Below the pieces are notes generated by a model. It saw only the letters and a program-made list of their open reading frames with translations, was not told the origin of the DNA and ran no database searches. A DNA stretch of 64,000 bases from Patescibacteria group bacterium (GTDB taxonomy: Bacteria; Patescibacteriota; Microgenomatia; UBA8517), in assembly GCA_041742135.1 (NCBI GenBank), contig JBGSJG010000004.1, positions 171,773 through 235,772 on the forward strand, written 5' to 3'. Position numbers and translations under genes: made by a program. This document shows, in pieces, positions 1,054 through 33,560 of the stretch (positions are counted from its first letter, which is position 1; every line of letters begins with the position of its first letter).

Positions 1054-2964
1054 TCAAGCTGCTGTACCATGATCGCTTCTGCCCTGATGTGTGGAGTCCT
1101 CATAGGCTGTAACATACATGTCTTCCACGTCACCATACCAAGTAAACGAATATGCCCCGTCGCCAGATCGGCTGGTTGTGGCCATCACTTCGTGTGTCCC
1201 CGCATCGTGAAGGTAGAGATTAATTGTTCCTCCACCAGAGCCAGAGATGTCTCCAGCAATGGTAAAGGTGATAGTGTGATACGTAACCCACAGGCCATAC
1301 CAGCTAGTTGATAAAGTCGGAGTATCCATCCTGAAAGATCTCGAAGTTTCTATGTCAAGGCGTGTGGGGTCCATATCGTTGGGGTGGCGCTTCCAAGTCT
1401 TTCTTGATGCATATCGAGCGGTAATGTTGCAGTTTTCATTGTCGCTTCTGTATTGTGTAACTCCGAAAGTTTCCCAGCCTTCGCCCTCACCCTCACCCGA
1501 TTGGCGCTCAGCTTGCAAACACAGCGATCCGGAGGTTGTGTTGTCTGTTGTTACCCCTCCTTCAGAGCAAACTCCAGTAAGCCAATAGCTAGACTCAGGG
1601 ATGGGGACAGATTTGCTGTCAACTTGATCACAATAGTTGTCATTGGTGCACTCAGACAGCAAATGAAACCGTGATTGATTGTGTGCACCAACACCATCAG
1701 TTGCTTTACCGCTTGTATAGTTTAAGATTAAAAATCCATTGACGCCCCAGCCATCATTGGCAGTAGAGGAGTAGATTCTGCATTCATACGGCATGCGTCC
1801 GCGTGCCAGCGTTGTAAAAGCTGTTCCTTGCTGGCCTCCAGCATCAATGCGGTGGACGAACATCCACTGTCCGTTTTGTGAACTTCCCGCTGTACAAGTG
1901 TATGTGGTGTAGCTGGCCTGGTTTCCCACAGCAATGTTCATAGATGTTGTGGCTGCGCCGTTTAGGCCAATTACACACGCACTCTCCTTGAGTGTAATAG
2001 TTGTTGGCTCTTGGATAAAGATGTCGCGCCCCCATGAGTCTCCATCTCCAGAAGTAGTTCCTCCAGCCCATCCTGTGGTATCAATCGCTCCGAGAATTAA
2101 ACTATTCCAAACAGTTGTAGTGGAAGAAGGATCAAATTCATATGTGACAGTGACCCATCCTCCTGGGTTGTCACCGCGACTGGTCACAGTAGCGCTCATC
2201 TCAAGCGAGCTGGCAGAAGTTAGAGTTTCTCCTGTGATGTCATAGCATAAGTTAATCCAACAAGATGCTGATAATCCTGCTTCCACATCCCAAACAGTAA
2301 CTGTACTGCCACCGTTTATGCGTAGTTGAATAACAAAGTCTGTGGTGGTGGCCACTACCTCGTTTCCAGTTATTTCCAGAAACGCCTGCCGAAGTGTTAC
2401 AGAGCCTTCCGGTAAAACACTACTGCCCCCAGTTAAAGCGGGGATTGCCGTGGCGCCACCGATAGTTTGCATAGAAGTTGTTAGTACAGATCGGGTAGAC
2501 TCGATAGGGATTCTGATAGTCTTTATGTGGGTACTGCTCGTGTCATCGTAGTCATAAGTGATAACAAGCTTAAATGAGTGATTTATAGTATTGGTCAGCG
2601 TTGCCCCATTAAAGCGCACGTACCAAGTGTTGCTTGTTCCGGACCAATTACTAGCAAAAAAGGCTGTAACGTCGGCCGCATACCACCAGGCTTCATTGTC
2701 GCCCGAGTTTGCTACTGGTGTTCCAAGTGCGTTGTTGTCTTGAGTACCAAACCCGCTGTCTGTCCCAATTGCCAGCTGTACATTCGCTAGGTTTCCAGCA
2801 GTCGTATTATCTCCACGAAACTGACACAAGAGGGAAACACTGCGAAATGCCACGACTGTTTCGGGGATATAAATCGCAATCGATTTGTCTCTGTTTGAGG
2901 CAGCGGTGAGTGTTGTTGCATCTACAGAGCTTGCAAATTCGATTGTTTTTTGTCTTGTTGCCAT
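1054..2964 (-). CDS. Hypothetical 636-aa Thr/Ser/Gly-rich protein with internally repeated beta-modules and no signal peptide.
   Basis: ORF track. Composition is low-complexity and T/S/G/N-rich. Internal module ends recur (KLVITYDYDD, VTVTYEFDPS). It is paralogous to the partial gene at 1..773. Confidence 0.6.
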   Translation of the reverse strand: MATRQKTIEFASSVDATTLTAASNRDKSIAIYIPETVVAFRSVSLLCQFRGDNTTAGNLANVQLAIGTDSGFGTQDNNALGTPVANSGDNEAWWYAADVTAFFASNWSGTSNTWYVRFNGATLTNTINHSFKLVITYDYDDTSSTHIKTIRIPIESTRSVLTTSMQTIGGATAIPALTGGSSVLPEGSVTLRQAFLEITGNEVVATTTDFVIQLRINGGSTVTVWDVEAGLSASCWINLCYDITGETLTSASSLEMSATVTSRGDNPGGWVTVTYEFDPSSTTTVWNSLILGAIDTTGWAGGTTSGDGDSWGRDIFIQEPTTITLKESACVIGLNGAATTSMNIAVGNQASYTTYTCTAGSSQNGQWMFVHRIDAGGQQGTAFTTLARGRMPYECRIYSSTANDGWGVNGFLILNYTSGKATDGVGAHNQSRFHLLSECTNDNYCDQVDSKSVPIPESSYWLTGVCSEGGVTTDNTTSGSLCLQAERQSGEGEGEGWETFGVTQYRSDNENCNITARYASRKTWKRHPNDMDPTRLDIETSRSFRMDTPTLSTSWYGLWVTYHTITFTIAGDISGSGGGTINLYLHDAGTHEVMATTSRSGDGAYSFTWYGDVEDMYVTAYEDSTHQGRSDHGTAA

Positions 2965-3242: not shown

Positions 3243-3755
3243 CTAGACGTTCCACTTTTTCGTAAACCACCAATTTTTGTCGTCAGTGAGGTTAAGCCTA
3301 AAAGAATGACCCTTTGTATATCCATTGACCGCAGAGATGACTCCGTTTTTAGTTCCAGCTCGATAACCGTTGCCTGCCACAATTCCACCCTTCTTAACTT
3401 TTTTGGTCCATTCGATAATGTCTCGAGCCACTTCGTCAAAGCGCTTGTCTGCATCAATATAAACAAAATCCAAAGAAGAATCTTTAAAATCATGTACCGC
3501 TTTGAGGCTGTAGTTTTTAACGAGTCTACTTGAAAAAGGGGAGAGATTTTTACGGGCAAGGCTATTTTGTGCTCTGGTTTCAGCAGTGGATCTACCGTCT
3601 ACTTCCCAAGAGTCAATTCCGGTGTATTTTAGCCCGGGAATGTTCTTACAAAGAACTTTTCCAAACTCACCGTTTCCTACGCCAACCTCAACACCTGTCT
3701 TGTAGCCTTGGCTACCTAGATACTTTGCCAAATCAACACGATTTTTAAGAGACAT
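3243..3755 (-). CDS. Class I SAM-dependent methyltransferase (Methyltransf_24 / TylF-CmcI-like).
   Basis: Motifs VEVGVGNGEFGKVLC (Gly-rich SAM loop), LDFVYIDADK and GGIVAGNGY. It is paralogous to three other methyltransferase domains in this island. Confidence 0.75.
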   Translation of the reverse strand: MSLKNRVDLAKYLGSQGYKTGVEVGVGNGEFGKVLCKNIPGLKYTGIDSWEVDGRSTAETRAQNSLARKNLSPFSSRLVKNYSLKAVHDFKDSSLDFVYIDADKRFDEVARDIIEWTKKVKKGGIVAGNGYRAGTKNGVISAVNGYTKGHSFRLNLTDDKNWWFTKKWNV

Positions 3756-3800
3756 TTATAAACTAACATTAGCAACTGGCTTGCTACTATGCAAGATGTA

Positions 3801-5498
3801 TTAATTGAATTGCTTGATTATTTCGCTGGTTTTTCCCCATCCAGGGATGTCGTCTGTTGTGATAAACCCTTTGGCCGTGTCTTTGTCTCGAAAATCATTT
3901 ACACTCCATTTATTCTTGCTCAAATTGTGCCCGTGCTTGATGTCAAGCATTGGGAAAGGAGCTTTCCAAGACGCAGTTAGTTTAGTGTCTCGGCCACCGG
4001 GCTCAAAGCCCATTGAGCTTTTGTAGCCGTATTTTCTAACTTCGACGACGCGTTTTCGATAAAACTTAAGTAGGTGTTCGCGGTAAGCACACAAACCTGA
4101 AACTTGGTTTGCGTCCCAATGTACCGCAAAGCCATCGGTTGATCTTACTCGCCACCAGTTATGGTCGTAATAAAAAATATCTTTTTTGGGTGGGGTAAAT
4201 TCAAAGTGGGACGGGTGATAAATACAATCGTGTTCGCAGAAGTAAATTACTTCGGCGGTGCTTGCTTCAAGGCCCGCGAGAATTTGCTCAAACATTGCTA
4301 AATAGCTTCGTGTGAGGTGTTTAAGGTGGATGTTTTTAGTTCCAAAATGAGGCATGGGTTTAAGCGACACAGAGACAATTGGAATGCCCGAATCTTGGCT
4401 AATGTGGCGCAGCTGTCTTTGTACGGCATGGGCAATTTTGAGTTTCAACTGGTTGTCTGTATAAAACACAATGCCTTTTGTGGGCGTGGCAGAGTAGACA
4501 ACACCATTGTCGGAGATGTCTTCTGTTGGCTCAGCTTCGTCGGGCTTTGTGGTAAATTCCGGAAAAGAAAAAGTATTTGCTTTAAGGTTTGCCAAGTCTT
4601 GTTCTGTCCAGCCCTTGACCGGCCAAAACTTTTCTACTAGCCAGGAAAACGGGTGTTTTTGCAAGGGCCACTGATTATTAAAAAATAGATTTTTTGCATA
4701 ATTTTTGGCTTTCTCCTGGTCCCTGCCACTCATCGGGTATGGGAAGCCAAAGTCTCCACCTTGAGTGCGAAACATGTGTGCATACCATGTTTTTTTATTA
4801 ACCATAACTCGGCCACCAGAAAGCCAAGTTTTTGCCGCAACCTCTATGCCTTGAGAGCCCCAACTGCCAAAGTTTTCATCGCAAATGCCCAACTCCCAGT
4901 ATTTTTCGCGCGTTAGCATAAAGCACGATCCCTGAATTGACATACTCTCTGTTAGCTCTCCCTTGCCTTCTGGGCGCCTGCTATATTCACCAAAGTACTG
5001 AAAATGAGGCGAAGAATCAAAACAATAAGAAACACTTTCAGGCCGCGGTTTTGCTATCCACACCACATCTCGAGTTGTTGGCTTTCCACAAACAGTACAA
5101 GGTCCACTAGGGCTTTGGTATCTGCGGTGGCCATCTGGGCATACCCAGTCAAAAGCGTGGAGATTTCGCATCAGAGGGATCATCGTCCAATCATCGTGCA
5201 TCTCATTCATTAGTTTGACGTCAAAGCCTTCGTCAAACGCACAGTGAGCATCACACTTCATTACATACTTGGCGGTGGATAATCTAGCAGCTTGGTTTGT
5301 TGCAGCTCGTTGGCCGATACTTTCTTGATTATGGACGAGTGTTACTCGTTCGTGATCAATCACGCCCGGGTCAGCCCAAGCGCCATCAAGCACGGCAATA
5401 ATCTCTGTGTCGCCTCGCATATTTTTAAGAATGTCCTCAATGGTGCGCGCCAAGAACATCTCGTTTCTGGCAGGAATTAATATTGAAAGATCAGCCAT
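3801..5498 (-). CDS. Two-domain glycosyltransferase: N-terminal GT2 (GT-A fold) fused to a C-terminal domain that is paralogous to the upstream standalone gene.
   Basis: ILIPARNE...IAVLDGAW...KCDAHCAFDEGFD matches the GT2 pattern (DxD-like DAH). The C-terminal half (IYHPSHFEFTP) parallels ORF 5491..6195. The start was moved to the internal ATG at 5498..5496, which gives an ATGgcTGA 8-nt overlap with the upstream stop. The ORF-track start at 5765 would overlap the neighbour by 275 nt. Confidence 0.75.
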   Translation of the reverse strand: MADLSILIPARNEMFLARTIEDILKNMRGDTEIIAVLDGAWADPGVIDHERVTLVHNQESIGQRAATNQAARLSTAKYVMKCDAHCAFDEGFDVKLMNEMHDDWTMIPLMRNLHAFDWVCPDGHRRYQSPSGPCTVCGKPTTRDVVWIAKPRPESVSYCFDSSPHFQYFGEYSRRPEGKGELTESMSIQGSCFMLTREKYWELGICDENFGSWGSQGIEVAAKTWLSGGRVMVNKKTWYAHMFRTQGGDFGFPYPMSGRDQEKAKNYAKNLFFNNQWPLQKHPFSWLVEKFWPVKGWTEQDLANLKANTFSFPEFTTKPDEAEPTEDISDNGVVYSATPTKGIVFYTDNQLKLKIAHAVQRQLRHISQDSGIPIVSVSLKPMPHFGTKNIHLKHLTRSYLAMFEQILAGLEASTAEVIYFCEHDCIYHPSHFEFTPPKKDIFYYDHNWWRVRSTDGFAVHWDANQVSGLCAYREHLLKFYRKRVVEVRKYGYKSSMGFEPGGRDTKLTASWKAPFPMLDIKHGHNLSKNKWSVNDFRDKDTAKGFITTDDIPGWGKTSEIIKQFN

Positions 5499-6195
5499 AA
5501 ATTCGTAGTACCTCCTCGGCAGTTCCCCAAGGCGCGACATGGTCCGCCCGGATTTCGCTATGAGCTTTTCTGTTACCAAGTTCTGTATAGCCCAGAGCTT
5601 CTGATGTCGAAAACATAATATTTGGCTCTTCTGATTTATACTCCTCAGCGGGAACAGGGAAGATGCCAAGGTGGTTTTCGAATCTGCCAGGCTCACCCCA
5701 ATACATTCGCAAAAGCCCGGGAGGAGTTTCTTCAAGCGATGGATATTTGCTGTAGCGCTCTTCAAGCGTCTTAACTAGGGCGCTTTTGGTAGTGATCAGG
5801 CTATTCATAAGCTTTCGTTCGCGATAGGAAAATATTGGAGGCTTCACCCAAGAAAATATTGACCATTTATTAATGTTGTAAGAAAACATGTTGTCGTCAG
5901 CTGGGCGATAGTCAAAGTGAGAAGGATGATAAAGCATGTCGTCTTCAGCCATGGCAACGTACTTTGTTTGGGCGGCTCGGGCTCCAAGAAGCACTTGGTG
6001 GTAGATCATATAATTGGATCTTTTTTGTACTCCAATACAGATATTAGTGCAATTGTTTCCGATTACTGTTGGTTTAAAAGAAACGCTAACAATAGGCGTG
6101 TCGCCGATGGCTTTTAATAAATACTCTTGAGTGTTGGCCATAAAATGGTCACTGTTCATGTTTGCTGTGTAGTAGATGATTGTCAGGTCGTTCAT
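5491..6195 (-). CDS. Hypothetical protein, homologous to the C-terminal domain of the adjacent GT2 fusion (unknown, sugar-transferase-associated domain).
   Basis: The shared motif EDDMLYHPSHFDYRP parallels CEHDCIYHPSHFEFTP in the neighbour. It is coupled to neighbours on both sides by 4-8 nt overlaps. Confidence 0.55.
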   Translation of the reverse strand: MNDLTIIYYTANMNSDHFMANTQEYLLKAIGDTPIVSVSFKPTVIGNNCTNICIGVQKRSNYMIYHQVLLGARAAQTKYVAMAEDDMLYHPSHFDYRPADDNMFSYNINKWSIFSWVKPPIFSYRERKLMNSLITTKSALVKTLEERYSKYPSLEETPPGLLRMYWGEPGRFENHLGIFPVPAEEYKSEEPNIMFSTSEALGYTELGNRKAHSEIRADHVAPWGTAEEVLRIYG

Positions 6196-7049
6196 ATATT
6201 TTGGTTAATAAACTCTTGCCATATTTTGTATTTTTCTTTGTATATTTTGAAGTATGGATGATCTTCTTGGCCTTGCCAATAGGTTTCGTTAAGTTCAATC
6301 CCCGGCGCTTCATCTGTAAGGTTTTTAATTGGATTAGAAGCTCTTTTGTGCTCAACTGTGGCAAAGCCCGAAACAACTGCCCAGCCAAGTTTATCTAATT
6401 CGCGCTTGCTTGTGATCCCCGCGAATATATCATCGAAACGATTGATACCCAAAGCCCACGGCGCATGAAAGATATAGGGGAGAACTTTTCGTTTGAACGC
6501 AAGATTCATGCTACACATTGGGTAGTAAACACCTTTTGGAATGGGGCCTTTATAAAAAGTCGTTTTTCGTTTGTCACCAAGAACGAGCTGAGTTGGGGCA
6601 TCCCAGTCTCCCGAGCCTTCCCATACGCCGTGCGAGATAACAACTTCAGCTTCGTTTCTAATTGAGTAAGGGAAGCCTCTTGTGTAATCTGTGGCTGTGG
6701 AAATCCAGCTCACAGGGACATTTTGGTTGAGCGCAATAAGGTGGTCGGCGATAGTGTCGCCAAGAGGGAAGACGTCGTCATCCAAAGTAATGATAGTGTC
6801 AATGTCTTTAAGATTTTTCGCGACATAGGCGAAGCCCAAGTTTCTGATTCCTGCATTAAAGTTGGTCAATGCTTGAGCGTGTTTGCCCATCACCTCTTTG
6901 ACGCCTTTGCCATTAACTGTAGGATTTTTCCCGTCTTCGACTACAACCAATGTGCAGTCGTGCGCCTCAAATAGCTCCTGCCATGCACTTTTAAAAGCCT
7001 TGAACATACTCGGCCTGATGGTTGGAATTACAATAGCGATATTTGCCAT
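6192..7049 (-). CDS. RGP / GT75-family protein (reversibly glycosylated polypeptide / UDP-L-arabinopyranose-mutase-like).
   Basis: I recognise similarity to plant RGP1. IAIVIPTIRP...LVVVEDG parallels DIVIPTIRN...LIIVQDGD. ISHGVWEGSGDWDAPTQLV parallels VSHGLWLNIPDYDAPTQLV. PMCSMNLAF parallels PMCGMNLAF. RFDDIFAG parallels RYDDMWAG. HKRASNPIKNL parallels HSKASNPFVNL. Confidence 0.7.
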   Translation of the reverse strand: MANIAIVIPTIRPSMFKAFKSAWQELFEAHDCTLVVVEDGKNPTVNGKGVKEVMGKHAQALTNFNAGIRNLGFAYVAKNLKDIDTIITLDDDVFPLGDTIADHLIALNQNVPVSWISTATDYTRGFPYSIRNEAEVVISHGVWEGSGDWDAPTQLVLGDKRKTTFYKGPIPKGVYYPMCSMNLAFKRKVLPYIFHAPWALGINRFDDIFAGITSKRELDKLGWAVVSGFATVEHKRASNPIKNLTDEAPGIELNETYWQGQEDHPYFKIYKEKYKIWQEFINQNI

Positions 7050-7051
7050 GG

Positions 7052-7714
7052 TTATTTGTGTTTGCTCACGAAAGTTAAATATTCTGTTTCGTATTGATTT
7101 TCGCTGATCTCAGCCACATTTATTTTTTCTTTATAGATCACATAGGGCAGTGCAATTTGGTCACAAGTAAAATATCTGGACTGATAATACCACCAAGATT
7201 TAAGCATGTCGTGAACATTTTTGGTGTTTCTGTAAACAAAAGCGGTTGAGGTGTAAAGCACGGTATCGCGAAAGCCTGTGTCTGCCATCGCCTCGGCTAG
7301 CTGCTCTTTATGGAGCCCATTTTTGTATCTGGAAGTGATATATCGGCCGCCCTCTTGCAGTTTTTCTTCGATATGGTTAGTTTCTTCTGTAATTGAATTT
7401 CTCCAAGGATGTTTGAAAAAAGCCATGTCACTTGAGCCTAGTTTGTCTAAAAGCCAGACGGTTGAGTCCGCCCTAAGCATCGAAAACGAACTATCAAGCC
7501 AAATGTAAACATCATAATCGGGAAGCATCTGCCAGCCAAAAAGCTTGGGGATTCTGTATTGGAAACGTGGCGTAAGCCCTGTGATCGGAGGGAAGTCGTG
7601 GTCGGTGAAGCGGTGGAAATGTACTTTGGTAAAACCTGTTGGTGTGTCTTGGGAAACTGGGTCAATAGGTACATCGAAACTTCCTAAATTGGCCGACAAG
7701 ATAGCAATTTTCAT
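7052..7714 (-). CDS. Hypothetical protein in the glycosylation island (possible nucleotide-sugar transferase-like; function unassigned).
   Basis: ORF track. The gene is tightly packed between the RGP-like gene and the methyltransferase genes (2-nt spacers). It has no signal peptide or TM helix, and the YDVYIWLDSSF segment is acidic. Confidence 0.5.
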   Translation of the reverse strand: MKIAILSANLGSFDVPIDPVSQDTPTGFTKVHFHRFTDHDFPPITGLTPRFQYRIPKLFGWQMLPDYDVYIWLDSSFSMLRADSTVWLLDKLGSSDMAFFKHPWRNSITEETNHIEEKLQEGGRYITSRYKNGLHKEQLAEAMADTGFRDTVLYTSTAFVYRNTKNVHDMLKSWWYYQSRYFTCDQIALPYVIYKEKINVAEISENQYETEYLTFVSKHK

Positions 7715-7715
7715 A

Positions 7716-8972
7716 TTACTTGATCTTTACATACATCCAGCTATTTTCTCGATAGTCTGGAGGGTTTTTAAGCTCAAACAAGGGGTGGATCGCATAAGCC
7801 TCGCACCAGGCCATAACAACGTTTTTGACATGCCCAAACTGGCGATTCTTGCTGGTACTAAAATCGTGCCCCGCTATAATTCCACCCTTTCTTACCTTTT
7901 TGCTCCATACCGCGATGTCGTTGGTAACGGCCTGAAACGAATGGTCGGCATCGATGTATACAAAGTCCAAAGATTCGTCTGCAAAGTCTTTTGCCGCCTC
8001 AACGCTCCACGTTTTAATAATTTTATTATTTGGATATTTGGCAAGTTTATTTTTAGCTATCTCGTACGCACGATCGTGGTCTCTTTGTTTTCGAAAGTTT
8101 TTATAAACAGGGTAGAATAGCCATGGATCAACCGAGAAAAGCTTCAGATCTGGATTGGATTGGCAGAGTACTTCCGAGTAAGTTCCCTCCAAAACACCAA
8201 CTTCCACTCCGACTTTAAAGCCAAGTTCGCGAAACAACACAGGTAAATCTTTATATCGATTGCAGGAGATTTTTATAGGGGAAGGCTGGCTAAGATCGAC
8301 ATTAAATTTTTTGACGATGTATTCAAGAGTCGCGTCCATTTGAGGCTTAACGATTACCCAAGATCGATAGCGATCACGAACTTCGCCCGGAACAATTTCT
8401 TTTGTCCCAAGCACGTACCAAGTTTTTATGTTGTTTTGCATGGCAAAGCGGTTTGTTGCAGCCACGACATCGCAAAAATTGTTTTTTTGTCTTATGTAGT
8501 CATGCCCCGCCAAAATTCCGCCGGGCTTGATTTTTTTGTACCACTGGTTAATGTCTTCAGACACAAAAGGATCTCTGTGGTTGGCATCAATGTATACAAA
8601 ATCTAACGAGTCGTCTTCAAAGCGGCGCAAGGCGTCTACGCTAAACTCTTGAATCAGCTCGTAATTTTTATATTTTGAAAGTCGCGCTACGGCATCTGAT
8701 TTTAATTTTCCGAGGGTTGTTGTGGATGTGTAATCACGGTAGCCGCGGTAGGGAGTATAAGGATCGACGCCAATAACTTTCATGTCTGGGTTATTGCGGC
8801 AGAGAACCTCTGAGTACTCGCCCGAAGCCACGCCAACTTCCACTGCGGTTTTGAAATTAAGTTTTTTAAGCCACGCGGCAAGATCGTCACGCCCGACATT
8901 GGGTATTTCAAGCGGCATGCTTTCGTCTAACTTTAGCTTGTAATTTTTGGCTATAAACTCTGAAACGTTCAT
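7716..8972 (-). CDS. Tandem-duplicated class I SAM methyltransferase (two Methyltransf_24-like domains in one polypeptide).
   Basis: Domain 1 has AVEVGVASGEYSEVLC...DFVYIDANHRD...GGILAGHDY. Domain 2 has GVEVGVLEGTYSEVLC...DFVYIDADHSF...GGIIAGHDF. The start was set at the ATG 8972..8970, which forms an ATGA overlap with the upstream stop. The ORF-track start is 8999. Confidence 0.75.
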   Translation of the reverse strand: MNVSEFIAKNYKLKLDESMPLEIPNVGRDDLAAWLKKLNFKTAVEVGVASGEYSEVLCRNNPDMKVIGVDPYTPYRGYRDYTSTTTLGKLKSDAVARLSKYKNYELIQEFSVDALRRFEDDSLDFVYIDANHRDPFVSEDINQWYKKIKPGGILAGHDYIRQKNNFCDVVAATNRFAMQNNIKTWYVLGTKEIVPGEVRDRYRSWVIVKPQMDATLEYIVKKFNVDLSQPSPIKISCNRYKDLPVLFRELGFKVGVEVGVLEGTYSEVLCQSNPDLKLFSVDPWLFYPVYKNFRKQRDHDRAYEIAKNKLAKYPNNKIIKTWSVEAAKDFADESLDFVYIDADHSFQAVTNDIAVWSKKVRKGGIIAGHDFSTSKNRQFGHVKNVVMAWCEAYAIHPLFELKNPPDYRENSWMYVKIK

Positions 8973-9538
8973 ATTTTTACCCACATCCAAGACCGCCATT
9001 TGTCACGGTACATTCCCGGGAGGCTTTGGCGAAGTCCCCAAATAATCAGTGGGCTGATACCATGCTTTTTAACATATTTGTTTATCGTTGTCTTCACCAA
9101 AAACTGACCGTTCTTGGTTGGTATCGTGTCGTAATAATCGTGCCCTGCAACAATTCCGCCCTTTCTGACCTTTTTGCTCCAACAATCTATGTCGCTCACA
9201 ACAAATTCCGGTTGGTGATTTGCATCAATATATACAAAATCCAAAGACTCGTCATCGAATCTATTTGCGGCATCGATGCTGTATTCTCGGATAAACTTAT
9301 AATTAGGGTAAGGACTAAGGCGATCATATGCCTCTTTAAAATATTGCTCTTGCCGTTTTTGAGACGATGAGTTCTCTGTACGCTTGTCCGCTGGGTTTTT
9401 CCTTGAGTTTTCCTCGGACTCCCAAGGATCAATGCCATAGATTTTCATTTGGGGATTTTTTTTGCACAAAACCTCAGAATAACGCCCTCTTTCAACGCCG
9501 ATCTCAGCACCAACTCTAAAATCAAGCTCATGCAACAA
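8969..9538 (-). CDS. Class I SAM-dependent methyltransferase (fourth paralogous domain).
   Basis: Motifs EIGVERGRYSEVLC, LDFVYIDANHQPEF and GGIVAGHDY. It has a Lys/Arg/Glu-rich insert. Confidence 0.75.
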   Translation of the reverse strand: MLHELDFRVGAEIGVERGRYSEVLCKKNPQMKIYGIDPWESEENSRKNPADKRTENSSSQKRQEQYFKEAYDRLSPYPNYKFIREYSIDAANRFDDESLDFVYIDANHQPEFVVSDIDCWSKKVRKGGIVAGHDYYDTIPTKNGQFLVKTTINKYVKKHGISPLIIWGLRQSLPGMYRDKWRSWMWVKI

Positions 9539-9632
9539 GCTTGCAAGGTCTTCTCTTCCTGTGTTTGGGATTTCTACCTTCCAGTCGGGCTTGAGTTTGT
9601 ATTTTGTGAAGATATGCTCAAGGGTGTCTATT

Positions 9633-10640
9633 TTAATCTGCCTCCTCTCGAGCTTTGTCGATTATTATTTGCTCTTTCCAGTTTGCGGGCCAAGTAGGTA
9701 CTGGCCAGAATTTCTCAATTAGCCAGTCAAAATCGTGAACCTTCTTGGGGAATCGGTTGTTGAGCCAGTAATCAATACAATTTTTGCGTCCTCGGTCACG
9801 CTCTGCTTGATGAAAGGCGTAACGTGCATTTGAAAACCCGTAACCCTTACCAGCCTTACCTTTGTGCCAGTGCGCATACCATGTTTTTTTATTAACTATC
9901 ACGCGGCCGCCGCCAAGCCAGGTGTTGTTACAGACTTCTTGAGCTTCCTGGATGAAAGAACCATACAGTTCAATATTCATTGGGCCGATCATCTTGAACC
10001 ACCAATCCCGTGTGGTGAAGTAGAGCGACCCTTGTGCCGACATGTTGTCGTCAATCAGGATGTCTTTGCGGTCAAAATACCTCTGCCTCCAGTCATCACC
10101 ATGGAGGCCGCACGCAGGATCGTGAGTTTTTATGTAAGGGTAAGTCAGGTACATATAGTCTATTGGAGGGCGTGCGTCTGGAGCTACCTCCCATTTTTCG
10201 GGGTCAAGCCGTAGCCTTCGAGGGATAACAACCCAGTTGTCATCACAGTCCGCCTTGAGCTTCGTATCAAACCCTTGATCGAACAAACAGTGGCCGTCAG
10301 ACTTCATAACATATTTTCCTCTGGCAATGGCCATGCCAGCGTTAATACACTGTCTCATGCCTTTGTTCTCATGAATTGTTCCGTGATGAAGAATAATGAG
10401 ATTTTTGTGTTCAGGAAGTGGGGGATCAGGCCAATAGCCATCAAGCACGACGATCACTTCAATTGAGCCTTCGGCCTTGGTAAAAAGATCGTTGACTGTT
10501 TGTTCGAGATACTTCTCGTTTCTGGTTGGAATAATAACAGACACGTCCGGCATGATCATCCCAAAAATACCACACTTCTTGGCATAAGTACATACATATT
10601 TTATTAAACTAGAAGAGGCTACTGTAGTAATCGTAAGCAA
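9633..10640 (-). CDS. GT2-family glycosyltransferase.
   Basis: VSVIIPTRNE...IEVIVVLDGYW...KSDGHCLFDQGFD. It is paralogous to the GT2 domain of 3801..5498 (VNKKTWYAHW parallels VNKKTWYAHM). The track start is a TTG at 10640 overlapping the upstream gene by 32 nt. The real start is probably the internal Met near 10554-10560 (MIMPDVSVII). Confidence 0.75.
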   Translation of the reverse strand: MLTITTVASSSLIKYVCTYAKKCGIFGMIMPDVSVIIPTRNEKYLEQTVNDLFTKAEGSIEVIVVLDGYWPDPPLPEHKNLIILHHGTIHENKGMRQCINAGMAIARGKYVMKSDGHCLFDQGFDTKLKADCDDNWVVIPRRLRLDPEKWEVAPDARPPIDYMYLTYPYIKTHDPACGLHGDDWRQRYFDRKDILIDDNMSAQGSLYFTTRDWWFKMIGPMNIELYGSFIQEAQEVCNNTWLGGGRVIVNKKTWYAHWHKGKAGKGYGFSNARYAFHQAERDRGRKNCIDYWLNNRFPKKVHDFDWLIEKFWPVPTWPANWKEQIIIDKAREEAD

Positions 10641-11235
10641 GTTTCTCTCGAGCAGCCCATTTACCGGGGAAGTCAGAATCGCCTTTAGTATAGCGGAATG
10701 AACTCGATTCAGTGTCTTCTCTCATAATCAGCCAACCGCCATCCTTGTTTGTAAATCCATAATAGGTAATTACGTTATCGTCGATTTCAGAAATTTGATA
10801 GCCATCGAGTGGCTGGCGTTCGGCTGGGGAGATTTTTTTACCTTCGCTGTTTTCAAGAGACGTTAAGCTGGGTGTGCTCGCTTGGCCCGGCAGAATGTTG
10901 CCGACTTTTCCTCGGAGTAGTGAAAACAGGAAGAAGGAAAGTCCTGCAGCACCCACAAGTTTCAGAAATGCCCTCTTGTCAATGTCTGCCACCTCGACAG
11001 AGGTTTTGCGGGCTTCTTCAGGTGGCTCTACTGTTTCCGGCTCCGCCCTGGATACCTGAATGGAAACCTCTCTGACTTGTTTTTTGTGTGGCAAGAGCTT
11101 GACCGCCAAGATGGCGAGTAGAGGATACAACAGTGTGGCAACCCCCAACTGTGTGTACGTTCGAGCGGTTAAAAACAAAATAACAACAACAAGGAAAGCT
11201 ACTGATAAACTGGTATAGGTGAGGGTCTTTCGCAT
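10609..11235 (-). CDS. Hypothetical membrane protein (two N-terminal TM helices, charged linker, third TM, ~100-aa C-terminal extracytoplasmic domain).
   Basis: ORF track. Hydrophobic stretches are LSVAFLVVVILFL, ATLLYPLLAILAV and LVGAAGLSFFLFSLL. No motif is recognised. Confidence 0.5.
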   Translation of the reverse strand: MRKTLTYTSLSVAFLVVVILFLTARTYTQLGVATLLYPLLAILAVKLLPHKKQVREVSIQVSRAEPETVEPPEEARKTSVEVADIDKRAFLKLVGAAGLSFFLFSLLRGKVGNILPGQASTPSLTSLENSEGKKISPAERQPLDGYQISEIDDNVITYYGFTNKDGGWLIMREDTESSSFRYTKGDSDFPGKWAAREKLAYDYYSSLF

Positions 11236-11238
11236 GGC

Positions 11239-12378
11239 TTAATAAATAAACGCGTAATCTGCGGATATAAAACCAGTATCGTCAAGCAGCTTTATTTCAA
11301 GCCACCCGGGATGTAAAGAGACCAAGTCAAATACATCTCCAGATTTCGCTTCTCCAATTTTCTCTGATTGTGCCGTCGGCTCTTTGCGAATGTTTACGCT
11401 CGCCAAGGCACTTTCTGCAATTACTGTAACTTTTGCGTAACCTAACGGGCTTGGAGTCTCTAGGGTCTCCACCACTTCCTCAACAGGTTCAAGTGGGGCA
11501 GGTGAGGGTGTTTCTACGGTTGTAACTGCCAACACTTGCGTTTCCTGCGTGTCTTGAGCAGAAGAAATTCTTACGTTACTGTACCCCACGCCGACAAGCA
11601 TAAAAAATAATACTATTAGGCTAACGTACTCAGGAGTTCTTGATAAACGCACTATTTCCGCATTTAAGGCCTCATGCTTGCGAGGACTACTTGCAAGGAT
11701 CGGTTTTGTATCAGTCTTTGCAAGTGTATGGGGGATATTCTCTAGAACTATGTCTAAAAGCAAATCGCCGTTTTCTAACTCGGCCTGATGCTTCTTTTGC
11801 AAATCTACAAAACTTTTAGCGCCTTCCTCTTTTAAGGCAGAAAGGACAATTTTTGTGTTCACCCACGATGTTTGCTTTTTCCCCGAATATTCGGGATATG
11901 TTGAGATGCGAGCGCCGTTTTGGATGTGCGCAGTGAGATGAGCAAGTTGCGCCGATGTTTCAATTTTCGCAGACTTATAAGGCCCTTCAAAGAGTGCTCC
12001 TGAGTGTTTATACTTTCTGTTGAAGTAAATTGAATAGCGTGTGCAAAGCGATCTGATAAAACTCTCGATTGCTTTCTCCTCAACTTGGTGGAGGAGAAGA
12101 TGGAAGTGGTCTGGGAAAAGGCTAAACGCCAAAAGTTGGATTTTTCCGAAGTAGTTTTTTGGCAGATGCGGCGTTCCTTTGTATGTGCGGCCTTTTACTG
12201 TAAAATCTTTTTTGAGGCTACTTGGGTCGTGAGGTGCGCTCAAATACTCGCCTAAATAGGCTACAAATACGCTGTAATCATCGTCATCTCCGAAGATGAT
12301 TCTATTCGCTGCACCTTTGTTGTAGACGTGCGAATTTGTCCCTTTTTCAGGCGACCTGAGCAGGCTCTTGGCAGGCAT
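11239..12378 (-). CDS. RAYT / IS200-like HuH tyrosine-transposase domain fused to a TM helix and a C-terminal SH3b-like domain.
   Basis: The HuH motif is PDHFHLLLH. YFNRKYKHSGALFEGPYKSAKIE matches the Y1-transposase/RAYT signature (YFNRRxGRSGxLFQGRYK). This is followed by the hydrophobic LIVLFFMLVGVGY and then GYAKVTVIAESALASVNIRKEPTAQSEKIGEAKSGDVFDLVSL..WLEIKL (SH3b-like). Confidence 0.7.
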   Translation of the reverse strand: MPAKSLLRSPEKGTNSHVYNKGAANRIIFGDDDDYSVFVAYLGEYLSAPHDPSSLKKDFTVKGRTYKGTPHLPKNYFGKIQLLAFSLFPDHFHLLLHQVEEKAIESFIRSLCTRYSIYFNRKYKHSGALFEGPYKSAKIETSAQLAHLTAHIQNGARISTYPEYSGKKQTSWVNTKIVLSALKEEGAKSFVDLQKKHQAELENGDLLLDIVLENIPHTLAKTDTKPILASSPRKHEALNAEIVRLSRTPEYVSLIVLFFMLVGVGYSNVRISSAQDTQETQVLAVTTVETPSPAPLEPVEEVVETLETPSPLGYAKVTVIAESALASVNIRKEPTAQSEKIGEAKSGDVFDLVSLHPGWLEIKLLDDTGFISADYAFIY

Positions 12379-12688: not shown

Positions 12689-14737
12689 CTAGGGGAGCGG
12701 ACTAGGTGTGACTGAAGCTTCAGGCGTACCAGTAGCTTCAGGTGCGGGTGTTACTTCTGGTTGAGGTGGCTCTGCATCTTCAGGTAACTCGATCGGGGGA
12801 GTAAGCGTTTCTTCCTCGCCAGATGGAGGCGGAGTTAAATTGGTTGAGCTTTCGTCCGTGACAGTTTGTCCCGCCTTGAGGTTCTGCAAATCTTCTAATG
12901 CTTTGGAAGCGACACTAAAGTCATCTGAATTGCGATCCACAAGTGCCAAGACCTGACTCATGGAAGCAATGGCTCGGTCAATATTGCCATTCTCTCTGTA
13001 AGCTACAGCCAGGTTGTAATGAGCATTTGCGTGGTTTGGTTTGGTAGCGACAGCCAGTTTAAAGACATCTATGGCATCTTCGTATGCTTTGGCGGAGTAA
13101 TAGATTCCACCCAAAGCAATTCTTGCATTGGTGTTTAGAGGGTCAAGTGCGATGGCCTGAGCGTAAGTCTGTACAGCAAATGCATCTGCGCCTTGAGCGA
13201 GTGGCATAACTGTTCTGTATATTGAGGCCAAAACCTCCCAATTGCCGGCACGAGCTGGGTTAAGCGTTACCGCCGCTTTTCCCTCAGCGATAGCTTGCTG
13301 AATAAGTGTTGCAATTGCACTTCTGTCTTCTTCAGTCAATTCTTCTTTTTGGGCTAGGGAGTTAGCAAGTGCCAAGTTGATCTGCGCATATGTAATTCTG
13401 TAGCGGTCAACGTAAAGATTTGTAGTAATTGCAGCTCGAAGAGTGTCATACGCTTTAGCGCCATCATTTCTAACTATGTGATCCAACGCCTGCTTATAGG
13501 TAAGATCAGCAGCAACAATCCTTGTAGCCTGCAAGCCAACGTAGCCTACGAACACGATTATCGGCAAGCTAGCGAAAATTACGGGGAGCCTTGCTGCAAA
13601 TGGAATGGATGCCCCGTCGTGCTCAGTATTAAACAAACCCATTTTAACGGACGTGCTTTGGCTAATTACTGCCAATAAGACAAAAAAGATGAATAGTACG
13701 GTCGGAGTTACAGGGAATAAAAGCATTGAGACTGCGAGTATGATAGCGGAAAGCTCTGCAGCTCCTTCTGGCTTTATAAAATGTTTAGTACCTTTCTTGG
13801 CATTGGAGACGACCATTCTCGCCAAGAAGTAAAACAAAAGGATCAACGAGGCGGTTCCTACTAAGCCAGTTTCAGTTATAGCGGTGAATAGATAATTTTG
13901 GCCAGAGGTGAATCTGGTTGACCAAAGATCACTGGCATTATACGAAGCGGGTCTAAATTGATTAAATGCTGACAAGTAGTTTCCAGGCCCCACACCCAAT
14001 AGGGGGTTTTGTTTTAGTGAGTCGACGGCTATGGACCATGAAGTGTCGACTCCAGGTAGTGCTAACGATGTATCTTTTCCTGGAAGGATATTAACTAGAG
14101 ACATTAAAGCGGCCAAAACCATCAATGCAAAAGTGATTCCCGAAAGAGCCTTAACAGCTACAGATTTTTCGCTTATAACATATGACAAAGCTAGGGGGGA
14201 CATGGCAACTAGAATTATTAATGCAGGCAATGGACCACCAAGCGTTGTAAATCCGGCTGACTGCATAAAAGCCGGTAGCCCAAGCCCTCGAAATACCCCC
14301 GCGGAGGCAAAAAGAACAACTACTGCAAGGATTGCGCTCGAGCCGAGCATTACCATTTTGAGCACATCTTTTCCTTTTTTGTTCATTTGGCTAACGATAA
14401 AGAAGCCAAGTCCTGAAAGTACAACTGCAGTGGCTGTGCCGGGGAGGAAAAAAGCCTCCATTTTGTTTGGCGTTTGGAGTATTGCGCTTGCAATGTAGGC
14501 CGCGGCAATCAGTATCACAGGAAGATCAAAAGCGCTTGCAGAGAAGGTGAGTGAATTTTTGATTAAGTTGCGAGCGCTTTTAATCAACAACACTATACCA
14601 ATAGTAATAGTTAGAAACGCTAGCTTGGGTGTAACGAATGCATTGGCGAATTGTGGTAGGACCAATAAAGGTAGCAAACCAACCGCCGCATGCATTATGT
14701 AGTTTTCAAATCTGCTATTAGTTGTTTGATTATCCAT
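12689..14737 (-). CDS. Polytopic membrane protein, O-antigen-ligase/Wzy_C-like, with C-terminal TPR repeats and a Pro/Thr/Glu-rich tail.
   Basis: There are more than 10 predicted TM helices in the first ~400 aa. The C-terminal segment has TPR-like repeats (AYEDAIDVFKLAVATKPNHANAHYNLAVAYRENGNIDRAI). The terminal low-complexity tail is TPPPSGEEETLTPPIELPEDAEPPQPEVTPAPEATGTPEASVTPSPLP. The Wzy_C assignment is by architecture, not a verified motif. Confidence 0.6.
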   Translation of the reverse strand: MDNQTTNSRFENYIMHAAVGLLPLLVLPQFANAFVTPKLAFLTITIGIVLLIKSARNLIKNSLTFSASAFDLPVILIAAAYIASAILQTPNKMEAFFLPGTATAVVLSGLGFFIVSQMNKKGKDVLKMVMLGSSAILAVVVLFASAGVFRGLGLPAFMQSAGFTTLGGPLPALIILVAMSPLALSYVISEKSVAVKALSGITFALMVLAALMSLVNILPGKDTSLALPGVDTSWSIAVDSLKQNPLLGVGPGNYLSAFNQFRPASYNASDLWSTRFTSGQNYLFTAITETGLVGTASLILLFYFLARMVVSNAKKGTKHFIKPEGAAELSAIILAVSMLLFPVTPTVLFIFFVLLAVISQSTSVKMGLFNTEHDGASIPFAARLPVIFASLPIIVFVGYVGLQATRIVAADLTYKQALDHIVRNDGAKAYDTLRAAITTNLYVDRYRITYAQINLALANSLAQKEELTEEDRSAIATLIQQAIAEGKAAVTLNPARAGNWEVLASIYRTVMPLAQGADAFAVQTYAQAIALDPLNTNARIALGGIYYSAKAYEDAIDVFKLAVATKPNHANAHYNLAVAYRENGNIDRAIASMSQVLALVDRNSDDFSVASKALEDLQNLKAGQTVTDESSTNLTPPPSGEEETLTPPIELPEDAEPPQPEVTPAPEATGTPEASVTPSPLP

Positions 14738-14823: not shown

Positions 14824-15579
14824 TTAAAATATAGAATGATATACTTCTGTATTATCAACTTTCCACTGAAAGTCGCATTCCCATTCAAGTGAGCTTTCAA
14901 TTGCAACAACAAAGTATCCTTCACCTTGGCTTTTGACATACAGACTTTGACCGTTTGTGGGAGAGTTTGCTGTAAGACTAATAAATGATTCATCGTTCAC
15001 AAGATTACTTAGCACGAGTGCTTCCTTTTTATTGGCGGCAATTTCGCTCTTACCAACGGACACGGCATAGCTTTCAATCGACTGACTGGTTGTTGTCTCG
15101 AGTGGGTCAGTAATTGAATTATGGATATCGTCTGTAAGTGGTGGAGTTTTTAAGACTATAAAATCGTCCGTACCAGAAGAAGCGAGTCTAGCAATTGCCT
15201 TGCTGTTACTATTAATAGTATTGCTTTCCGGAACCATTGCGGGATTATTTACTTCTATGTAAGAAACTGAAGGGGAGGCGCTTCGAAAGAAATGGCTTGA
15301 CACTGCGGAAAGAGAGAGGATAGATAAAGCCGCCAGGGCATATACCCCAAATGATTGGTAACGTCGTGAATTAGTGAATTCTAAATATCTCTTGATAGCG
15401 TAATTTCTCCTTTTGATGGTGGCTGGGCTGTAAGCTTTTTCTTCATCGCTAGCCAAAAAGGAACGAACATCGCTAATATAATTTTTAACTGTTGTTTCTG
15501 AGGCGCCAGATTTTTCAAGCGATCGCTTAAAGTCGGCTAATACTTTAGGGGTACTGTGAGAGTGTAACTTTATAATCAT
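14824..15579 (-). CDS. Hypothetical membrane-anchored protein with an N-terminal phage-integrase-SAM-like (core-binding-type) helical domain.
   Basis: N-terminus is FKRSLEKSGASETTVKNYISDVRSFL...IKRRNYAIKRYLEF (integrase N-terminal-like). It has a single TM (VYALAALSILSLSAV) and a Ser/Thr/Asn-rich C-terminal region. Confidence 0.45.
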   Translation of the reverse strand: MIIKLHSHSTPKVLADFKRSLEKSGASETTVKNYISDVRSFLASDEEKAYSPATIKRRNYAIKRYLEFTNSRRYQSFGVYALAALSILSLSAVSSHFFRSASPSVSYIEVNNPAMVPESNTINSNSKAIARLASSGTDDFIVLKTPPLTDDIHNSITDPLETTTSQSIESYAVSVGKSEIAANKKEALVLSNLVNDESFISLTANSPTNGQSLYVKSQGEGYFVVAIESSLEWECDFQWKVDNTEVYHSIF

Positions 15580-33540: not shown

Positions 33541-33560
33541 GGAAATTTAATTTTATAATA

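Follow-up and report, generated by a model that had tools for sequence, protein, structure and literature searches.

A WaaL-fold membrane protein family of Microgenomatia with predicted extracytoplasmic tetratricopeptide repeats, often encoded next to surface proteins that share a C-terminal module

Introduction

Bacteria of the candidate phyla radiation (CPR, or Patescibacteria) have ultra-small cells, which are presumed to be attached to those of a host, and most of them are uncultured. Their giant surface proteins are widely suspected of mediating host contact; we know of no account of how these giants are matured or displayed. The analysis presented here concerns a stretch of 64,000 nucleotides (nt) from a patescibacterial genome of the lineage Microgenomatia (assembly GCA_041742135.1, contig JBGSJG010000004.1, positions 171,773 to 235,772), referred to as the window, and within it a minus-strand gene at 12689–14737, referred to as the target. 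An initial annotation, made from the sequence alone, described its product as an O-antigen-ligase-like polytopic membrane protein with extracytoplasmic tetratricopeptide repeats (TPRs) and as a candidate O-oligosaccharyltransferase (O-OTase) that could glycosylate Ser/Thr-rich giant proteins encoded nearby. The target is found here to belong to a large protein family whose genes are frequently paired with genes for surface proteins ending in a common module. In the literature searched, no relevant link between CPR bacteria and O-antigen-ligase-like proteins was found.

The target gene and its product

The target and the parts of its product are located in the window as follows.

12689–14737, minus: target gene, 682 amino acids (aa), ATG start (open reading frame (ORF) list, AlphaFold2 model, homologues of equal length)
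13523–14737, minus: membrane domain, residues 1–405, 11 transmembrane (TM) helices (hydropathy, AlphaFold2, Foldseek)
14438–14476, minus: outer loop 3-4, residues 88–100, TPNKMEAFFLPGT, the most conserved segment (alignment)
13895–14086, minus: large outer loop, residues 218–281, with family-specific conserved residues (alignments)
13532–13600, minus: extra TM helix 11, residues ~380–402 (AlphaFold2 helix 380–422; positive-inside counts)
12860–13522, minus: predicted extracytoplasmic TPR domain, residues 406–626, ten helices (Pfam, Foldseek)
12692–12859, minus: disordered tail, residues 627–682 (pLDDT, the predicted local distance difference test score, <50; composition)

The order along the protein is a WaaL-fold membrane domain, the extra TM helix, the TPR domain and a tail rich in Pro, Glu and Thr. 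The full-length AlphaFold2 model, built on 36 homologues, reached a pLDDT of 83.2 and a predicted template modelling score (pTM) of 0.80. Eleven TM helices, the last ending at residue ~402, were obtained from both hydropathy and AlphaFold2, in agreement with the ten or more of the initial annotation; the TPR-rich domain was likewise recovered, at ~220 aa and with Pfam matches above cutoff (the peptide originally quoted for it lies at residues 549–590), as was the Pro/Thr/Glu-rich tail, which is composed of 27 % Pro, 18 % Glu and 16 % Thr. The family alignment shows that the tail retains a PPIELPE...PP motif, with conserved L634, P637, L651, P652, P657 and P658.

An ORF of 155 aa on the plus strand (14031–14498) runs antisense inside the target gene; it is without support and is most likely a shadow ORF. 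A scan for promoters and terminators around the target and the gene upstream of it gave counts no higher than those in shuffled controls and was uninformative.

Family distribution and fold of the membrane domain

More than 318 close homologues of the target were found, all of 660–715 aa, with identities of 43–72 % among them, while a search with residues 1–410 (E<=1e-3) returned 1,805 clusters at 50 % identity, almost all of 600–710 aa. Source names and 80 species-level loci assign the family to Woesebacteria, Amesbacteria, Gottesmanbacteria, Shapirobacteria and other Microgenomates, and the family appears to be confined to Microgenomatia. Many records with a gene of this family are titled 'uncultured Gammaproteobacteria' (loci L008, L010, L012 and others in the numbering used here), and single records are titled 'Nanoarchaeia', 'Nevskiaceae' or 'Micrarchaeota' (L058, L071 and L077); these titles are probably labelling or binning errors.

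The membrane domains of 16 of 24 family members that were scanned singly matched Wzy_C (PF04932; E<=0.1, best E=1.5e-8), and no other family recurred among the 24, neither a transporter nor a PMT family. The Wzy_C core corresponds to target residues ~170–300. Judged from these profile matches, the homology of the family to Wzy_C is remote but significant, and the target itself is no curated member. A profile of the membrane domain had no match among Protein Data Bank (PDB) sequences, and a comparison of the family profile with the single sequence of E. coli WaaL by hhalign gave none.

Foldseek with the full-length model was swamped by TPR matches, and therefore a model of the membrane domain alone was made with AlphaFold2 (pTM 0.83). 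Its sole significant match in the PDB was the WaaL O-antigen ligase 7TPG_B (E=1.5e-4, probability 1.0, TM-score 0.42). The next matches were transporters, with E>=0.18 and probabilities of <=0.13, and the GT-C structures AftB and AglB gave E=0.26–0.9 and TM-scores of <=0.22. Since WaaL is the single significant fold match, the membrane domain is, as modelled, of the WaaL/Wzy_C fold. The fold proposed in the initial annotation is thus upheld by the matches of the 16 members and by the structural match to WaaL, but not by the target's own sequence. By the criteria of Wzy_C, WaaL, PglL and TfpM themselves, the target is a curated member of none of the four; what it has in common with them is the fold.

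Predicted topology and the TPR domain

The mean number of lysine and arginine residues over 36 sequences was 13.7 in the ~77 residues of loops predicted to be cytoplasmic and 2.9 in the ~51 residues of short loops predicted to lie outside. On the basis of the helix count and the positive-inside rule, the N-terminus is predicted to be inside and the large conserved loop (residues 218–281) outside, as in WaaL. After this loop, three helices are predicted to lead the chain back into the cytoplasm, which also matches WaaL; the AlphaFold2 model shows residues 323–340 and 345–358 as separate helices, and the helix at 380–422 runs on into the TPR domain. The extra helix 11 would thereby place the TPR domain outside the cell, and the extracytoplasmic location assumed in the initial annotation is accordingly also the one predicted from eleven TM helices and the positive-inside rule.

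The TPR region (residues ~406–626) consists of five TPR-like helix pairs. Eight Pfam families matched above cutoff at residues ~480–630 (TPR_19, TPR_16, TPR_11, TPR_7, TPR_17, TPR_2, TPR_1 and TPR_8), and the top Foldseek matches of the full-length model were the TPR domain of OGT and consensus TPR proteins. Residues 253–279 of the large outer loop were modelled with a pLDDT of ~87–93 in the full-length model and of <50 in the membrane-only model. This difference might indicate that the TPR domain is packed against the outer catalytic loop; it is only suggestive, as the two alignments differ in depth.

Conservation of the outer face

Within the family, mean pairwise identity is highest in outer loop 3-4 (0.78), followed by the large outer loop (0.62) and the TPR domain (0.60), and it amounts to 0.29–0.43 in the TM helices. 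P90, N91, P99 and G100 of outer loop 3-4 are invariant. Outward-facing conserved residues comprise N91, K92, E94, K221, W234, D239, K242, N253 and Y254, as well as R260, R262, N267, W272, R/K275 and E289, and loop 218–281 also contains a conserved glycine-rich stretch, G248-x-G250-P-G-N253-Y254. Seventy columns between residues 406 and 659 are conserved at >=90 %, so that the TPR domain is about as conserved as the catalytic loops. The concentration of conservation on the outer face argues for a working extracytoplasmic site with a conserved binding partner and not for a decayed enzyme.

The relationship to WaaL was followed at the residue level in a MAFFT alignment of the family core (24 members) with E. 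coli WaaL and the core of Cupriavidus (C.) metallidurans WaaL. The family motifs W..I.....P..G.G.G and xN.......E.G..G align cleanly with both ligases.

The upstream partner, the giant proteins and a shared C-terminal module

The gene immediately upstream of the target and the large surface-protein genes of the window are the following.

14824–15579, minus: upstream partner, 251 aa, separated from the target by an 87-nt gap (ORF list, Pfam, TM prediction)
14851–15087, minus: C-terminal module of the 251-aa partner, ~80 aa, residues ~165–243 (jackhmmer, hmmsearch, alignment)
38861–53359, minus: giant surface protein, 4,832 aa (Pfam, TM helix, hidden Markov model (HMM) of the module)
28579–38861, minus: two proteins with DUF2341 and Laminin_G_3 repeats, 1,766 and 1,653 aa, whose genes follow that of the giant (Pfam)

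The partner consists of a Phage_int_SAM-like head, one TM helix (residues 76–94) and an extracellular part that ends in the module; its conserved part is the C-terminal ~80 aa. The giant has a MerR/HTH_17 head, one TM helix (residues 125–143) and a long extracellular part rich in Thr, Gly, Ala and Ser, and the module HMM detects the same module at its extreme C-terminus (about 38873–39088, E=8e-12). As a single TM helix follows a basic cytoplasmic head in both module proteins of the window, they would be oriented with the N-terminus inside and the C-terminus outside, with the module at the distal outer end. HTH_17/MerR-headed giants of other loci likewise end in the module, which is absent, in an HMM search, from the LamG (Laminin_G-type) proteins and from the Y1_Tnp/SH3 protein described below. 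Both DUF2341 proteins have an N-terminal signal anchor and six to seven Laminin_G_3 repeats, a combination that we take to be that of MshQ, a protein of type IV (MSHA) pilus biogenesis. Ser and Thr together make up 20–24 % of the three large proteins (1,653, 1,766 and 4,832 aa).

The module has the consensus aG.a.ipaG..e..I.N..v...sliyvTPts.T.n.vlyVk.k..G.F.Vgf......d..FNWwi; it is β-rich, with invariant Gly and Trp (FNW) and a conserved Ser/Thr-rich loop (yvTPtS.T.N). Pfam reports no module match in the two module proteins of the window. Eight of 26 modules matched K1-lyase_C (PF24146) over the full length of that Pfam domain, mostly below the Pfam cutoff (best E=6.8e-6), and the top PDB profile match, which was not significant (E=0.23), was the extreme C-terminus of a cyanophage tailspike. 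From these matches the module seems to be weakly related to the C-terminal domains of phage tailspikes (K1-lyase_C). In both cases the domain is located at the very C-terminus, the distal tip of a long fibre; in contrast to tailspikes, the module occurs on cellular, N-anchored proteins with DNA-binding-like cytoplasmic heads and not on virion proteins. This module of ~80 aa, common to small and giant surface proteins, is previously undescribed, and its conserved pairing with the target family is the more novel element of the analysis.

A layout of a cytoplasmic nucleic-acid-binding-like head, one TM helix and an extracellular part is seen in three minus-strand genes of the window (38861–53359, 14824–15579 and 11239–12378). 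Their heads are, respectively, MerR/HTH_17, Phage_int_SAM-like and Y1_Tnp/IS200-like, and the layout resembles that of membrane-tethered regulators of the ToxR type.

Gene order in related loci

Gene order was compared, by local tblastn and ORF calling, in five loci retrieved by exact protein match, two of which represent one and the same place, and in 80 species loci. With the module HMM, a protein encoded upstream on the same strand was found to carry the module at its C-terminus in 43 of 84 loci (41 of the 72 with at least 1.5 kb of upstream flank), and just one module match fell in any other position. The carriers range from 116 to >3,100 aa, and 29 loci have the carrier gene directly next to the target-family gene (gap <300 nt). 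Homologues of the 251-aa partner itself were found directly upstream of target-family genes in 17 loci by tblastn.

Two upstream contexts predominate. The first, also present in the window, is a block encoding leucyl-tRNA synthetase (LeuRS), ComEA and ComEC (30 loci); the second is a gene on the same strand for a large surface protein, either LamG/DUF2341-type or giant-like, at gaps of 14–250 nt (27–28 loci). The recurrent layouts are giant-module protein, LamG protein and target; giant-module protein and target; and small module protein and target. The first of these recurs at 33–49 % target identity, and homologues of the LamG protein lie between the giant and target-family genes in L003, L016 and L027–L034 (including L027, L028, L029, L031 and L034). 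In the window and in L076 a small module gene adjoins the target-family gene, and a giant-module gene lies farther off. Nearness of the target to the Ser/Thr-rich giants, as initially described, holds only in part: the giants exist, but they lie 14–38 kb away, beyond genes for LeuRS, ComEA, ComEC, arginyl-tRNA synthetase (ArgRS), MgtE, an M16 peptidase, adenylate kinase and a GH5 cellulase. The product of the cellulase gene (26941–28566, plus; E=2.7e-26) has near its C-terminus, at residues 468–532, a weak match to T4SS_pilin that may be a membrane anchor.

The sugar island and other downstream genes

The genes on the other side of the target are the following.

11239–12378, minus: 379-aa protein with a Y1_Tnp-like head, a TM segment, a Pro/Thr (PT) linker and SH3_3 (Pfam, TM segments)
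10609–11235, minus: 208-aa protein, three TM-like segments plus a soluble C-terminal part (no Pfam match)
3243–10640, minus: sugar-modification island, with GT2, three Methyltransf_24, TOD1/MUCI70-like, RGP/GT75 and GT2 (Pfam)

Twenty-six loci have a downstream neighbour of the Y1_Tnp type. The gene of the 208-aa protein comes after the Y1_Tnp/SH3 gene in 14 related loci and may be part of the same conserved block. These two genes separate the sugar island from the target. The island of glycosyltransferases (GTs) and methyltransferases beside which the initial annotation placed the target is real, but it is found only in some relatives and its content differs: homologues of the window GT2 genes lie downstream in 7 of 56 loci, L001 and L005 carry other sugar genes where the window has its island, and no sugar genes are present there in L003 and L004. 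The island is a weaker, variable neighbour of the target family. No lipopolysaccharide (LPS) genes were found in the window or the related loci. The island GT2 proteins were considered as membrane-bound polyprenyl-phosphate sugar synthases of the GtrB type and rejected, as none has a TM segment.

At 6192–7714 (minus) the island encodes RGP/GT75 (reversibly glycosylated polypeptide, UDP-arabinopyranose mutase-like; E=7.5e-32) and a TOD1/MUCI70-like domain, both of plant-type cell-wall enzyme families, which suggests sugars of the arabinofuranose type in a CPR bacterium. At the far end of the island, 1054–2964 (minus) encodes a 636-aa protein rich in Thr, Gly and Ser (Ser plus Thr 24 %), for which no TM segment, no Pfam match and no homologue in 85 related loci were found.

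Proposed function and the points that weigh against it

The computed fold, architecture, predicted topology, conservation pattern and gene pairing are consistent with an extracytoplasmic WaaL-fold glycan transferase that acts on module-bearing surface proteins, a possibility put forward tentatively and held at somewhat less than even confidence; its catalytic activity, donor, acceptor and site we infer as follows. The membrane domain would bind, on its outer side, a sugar or oligosaccharide linked to polyprenyl phosphate, in a donor site made by the two conserved outer loops (residues 88–100 and 218–281). The eleventh TM helix would set the conserved TPR domain outside, beside this site, where it would dock the protein client, onto which the enzyme would then move the glycan. 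The most likely clients would be N-anchored surface proteins with the module, represented in the window by the 251-aa protein and the 4,832-aa giant, and the Ser/Thr-rich loop of the module (yvTPtS.T.N) would be a candidate acceptor site.

A number of observations weigh against this proposal. The profile search of the target against Wzy_C (PF04932), which the initial annotation had proposed as a check, gave no match even at E<=1, and six family members scored 27.1–30.1 bits over residues ~173–300, under the gathering cutoff of 31.7 bits; because the scores fall just below the cutoff, source records name the family only 'tetratricopeptide repeat protein'. The PglL-specific HMM PglL_A (PF15864) was absent from the Pfam matches of the target at E<=1 and did not recur in the 24 scanned members. 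The TfpM HMM (NCBIfam NF058641) matched residues 280–362 only, with 17.5 bits (E=1.7e-3), and the target does not reach its equivalog cutoff of 600 bits. The window contains neither a flippase (a Wzx-like polytopic protein) nor a priming phosphoglycosyltransferase, and all GTs of the island are soluble. The adjacency of the genes in related genomes could partly be inherited gene order; the phage relatives of the module are structural or receptor-binding tips and not known glycosylation tags; and TPR domains also scaffold polysaccharide export machines (AlgK, BcsC, PelB and PgaA).

The most direct objection concerns the active site. Conserved functional residues are R215, R288 and H338 in E. 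coli WaaL and R224, R298 and H349 in Neisseria (N.) meningitidis PglL (Schulz et al., PMC3643930). In the alignment with WaaL, the R215 position is occupied by an invariant Leu (L170) in the target family, R288 falls in a segment of ~19 aa that the family lacks, and H338 corresponds to Q280 in the target and to R13/Q5/S2/N2/G1/H1 in the 24 members. Independently of any alignment with WaaL, the share of His among 36 members stays below 30 % at every column of the membrane domain. As the Arg/Arg/His set of WaaL and PglL is missing, the chemistry of the target enzyme, and possibly even its type of donor, is probably unlike that of the characterized ligases.

The initial assignment as an O-oligosaccharyltransferase that glycosylates the giants gains from the conserved gene order and the shared module, and loses from the lack of the canonical residues and of a PF15864 match; O-oligosaccharyltransferase activity of the target is a reasonable hypothesis.

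Comparison with characterized systems

WaaL of C. metallidurans (7TPG) and E. coli has in common with the target the polytopic helical fold and the outer-loop motifs leading into a TM helix. Compared with WaaL, the target has one more TM helix, an outer TPR domain of 220 aa and a tail rich in Pro and Thr, and is without the R215, R288 and H338 residues. The donor of WaaL is reported (in work of Ashraf et al. from 2022) to be a polyprenyl-diphosphate-linked glycan that is used on the outer side of the membrane. CPR bacteria, to our knowledge, have no lipid A and hence no acceptor of the WaaL type.

PglL, PilO (TfpO), PglS and TfpM are Wzy_C-fold enzymes that move lipid-linked glycans to Ser/Thr of surface proteins. 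Genes of the PglL type often adjoin the substrate gene, pglL being next to the pilin substrate gene in 21 of 31 species (PMC3643930). In 29 loci the target-family gene directly adjoins a module-carrier gene, whose product is a putative substrate. In contrast to the PglL group, the target has no equivalents of R224/R298/H349, and its putative substrates are not pilins but N-anchored module proteins.

The O-OTases WsfB and PglL are described as having Wzy_C and a C-terminal TPR motif (PMC2943079), an architecture that the target shares, with an outside location of its TPRs that is predicted. This architecture and the position of pglL beside pilin genes are precedents for the function proposed here. 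WsfB of Paenibacillus alvei, a predicted S-layer O-OTase with which the target was compared by description, belongs to a Gram-positive bacterium that has no outer membrane, and acts on an abundant surface protein (PMC2943079). WsfB is encoded in a dedicated S-layer glycan cluster, whereas the target is paired with putative client genes and only sometimes with sugar genes.

The Wzy polymerases of O-antigen and capsule share their Pfam clan and fold family with the target, and many of them lack the WaaL His. Wzy proteins are specific to their repeat unit, show little conservation and are encoded alongside Wzx within glycan clusters, whereas the target family is highly conserved, lies outside glycan clusters in many species and bears TPRs. 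Eukaryotic TMTC1-4 and bacterial proteins combining PMT_2 with TPRs are GT-C O-mannosyltransferases that use a lipid-linked donor and select protein substrates with non-cytoplasmic (lumenal or periplasmic) TPRs. These are functional analogues of the proposed enzyme; their catalytic module differs, and no PMT/GT-C family or structure matches the target.

Alternative explanations

The alternative that survives best, although we consider it rather unlikely, is that the target makes or attaches a surface glycopolymer that is not linked to protein, acting as its polymerase or ligase, either polymerizing lipid-linked repeats as Wzy does or, in a monoderm cell, attaching glycans to a lipid or cell-wall acceptor as WaaL does. 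The TPR domain would then be a scaffold for export or assembly partners, a role typical of TPRs in exopolysaccharide systems, and the module-bearing fibres would be neighbours because they bind or traverse the polymer. Wzy_C does include polymerases without the WaaL His/Arg set, which the target family also lacks; the window, L001 and L005 have a sugar island downstream; and the relatives of the module form the C-terminal domains of glycan-recognizing proteins, namely capsule depolymerases and tailspikes. Wzy polymerases, however, are poorly conserved and co-vary with the repeat unit, whereas the target family is 43–72 % identical while the islands differ or are absent. Since the enzyme is highly conserved beside differing sugar islands, an en-bloc transferase with relaxed donor specificity fits better than a repeat-unit-specific polymerase. 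Neither Wzx nor a chain-length regulator or priming enzyme is encoded nearby in the window, and same-strand pairing with protein genes (43 of 84 loci) is more frequent than the presence of GT2 homologues (7 of 56).

It is improbable that the neighbourhood reflects nothing but inherited gene order and that the target has a general housekeeping role in the envelope unrelated to the giants or the sugar island. The presence of the LeuRS–ComEA–ComEC block upstream in ~30 loci, and the derivation of many loci from a single bacterial class, would be in line with such inheritance. Against this, both upstream contexts retain a module gene beside the target, the retained carriers include small proteins that share little with the giants except the module, and the orientation is near-invariant, with 43 carriers upstream on the same strand and one match elsewhere.

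Quite improbable is the explanation that the target is an inactive pseudoenzyme of WaaL fold serving as a membrane platform, in which the TPRs and outer loops hold or chaperone the module during fibre secretion or assembly, or tether the tip of the fibre to the cell. The loss of all three canonical catalytic residues, a TPR domain as conserved as any other part and the strong gene pairing with module-bearing proteins are what such a platform would lead one to expect. Conservation, however, is highest in the outer loops, which in WaaL make up the active site, and these loops contain many invariant polar and charged residues, a pattern typical of a substrate-binding or catalytic site and not of a decayed one.

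A membrane region of the transporter or GT-C type (PMT/ArnT/TMTC) instead of a Wzy_C fold might be suggested by the target's lack of a Pfam Wzy_C match and by the superficially similar TMTC/PMT+TPR architecture. This reading is highly implausible and was rejected on the basis of Foldseek with the membrane-only model, in which such structures reached only E>=0.18, probability <=0.30 and TM-score <=0.22 (WaaL: E=1.5e-4, 1.0 and 0.42), and neither a transporter nor a PMT family recurs in the 24 scanned members. A transporter family in the TM region, which the initial annotation had named as an example of a refuting outcome, was not found.

Implications

The analysis ties together a large unannotated enzyme family, an undescribed C-terminal module and giant surface proteins. 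For the enzyme class, it shows that strong conservation of the WaaL/Wzy_C fold is possible in a family that lacks the Arg/Arg/His set considered essential, which bears on the mechanism of these enzymes. The family also bears on the search for new O-linking oligosaccharyltransferases for glyco-engineering, and the hypothesis of a glycan transferase acting on module-bearing proteins may be tested with a small construct consisting of the 251-aa partner and the enzyme.

A more far-reaching possibility, which we regard as unlikely, is a surface-fibre maturation system specific to Microgenomatia, in which a WaaL-fold enzyme with a rebuilt active site, lacking Arg/Arg/His and possibly dependent on another lipid-linked donor, would use its outer TPRs to recognize the tip module and would glycosylate the module or couple it to a glycan. 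If this were true, the module would represent a novel type of tag, for modification or for sorting, on the giant proteins that are thought to mediate contact between CPR bacteria and their hosts.

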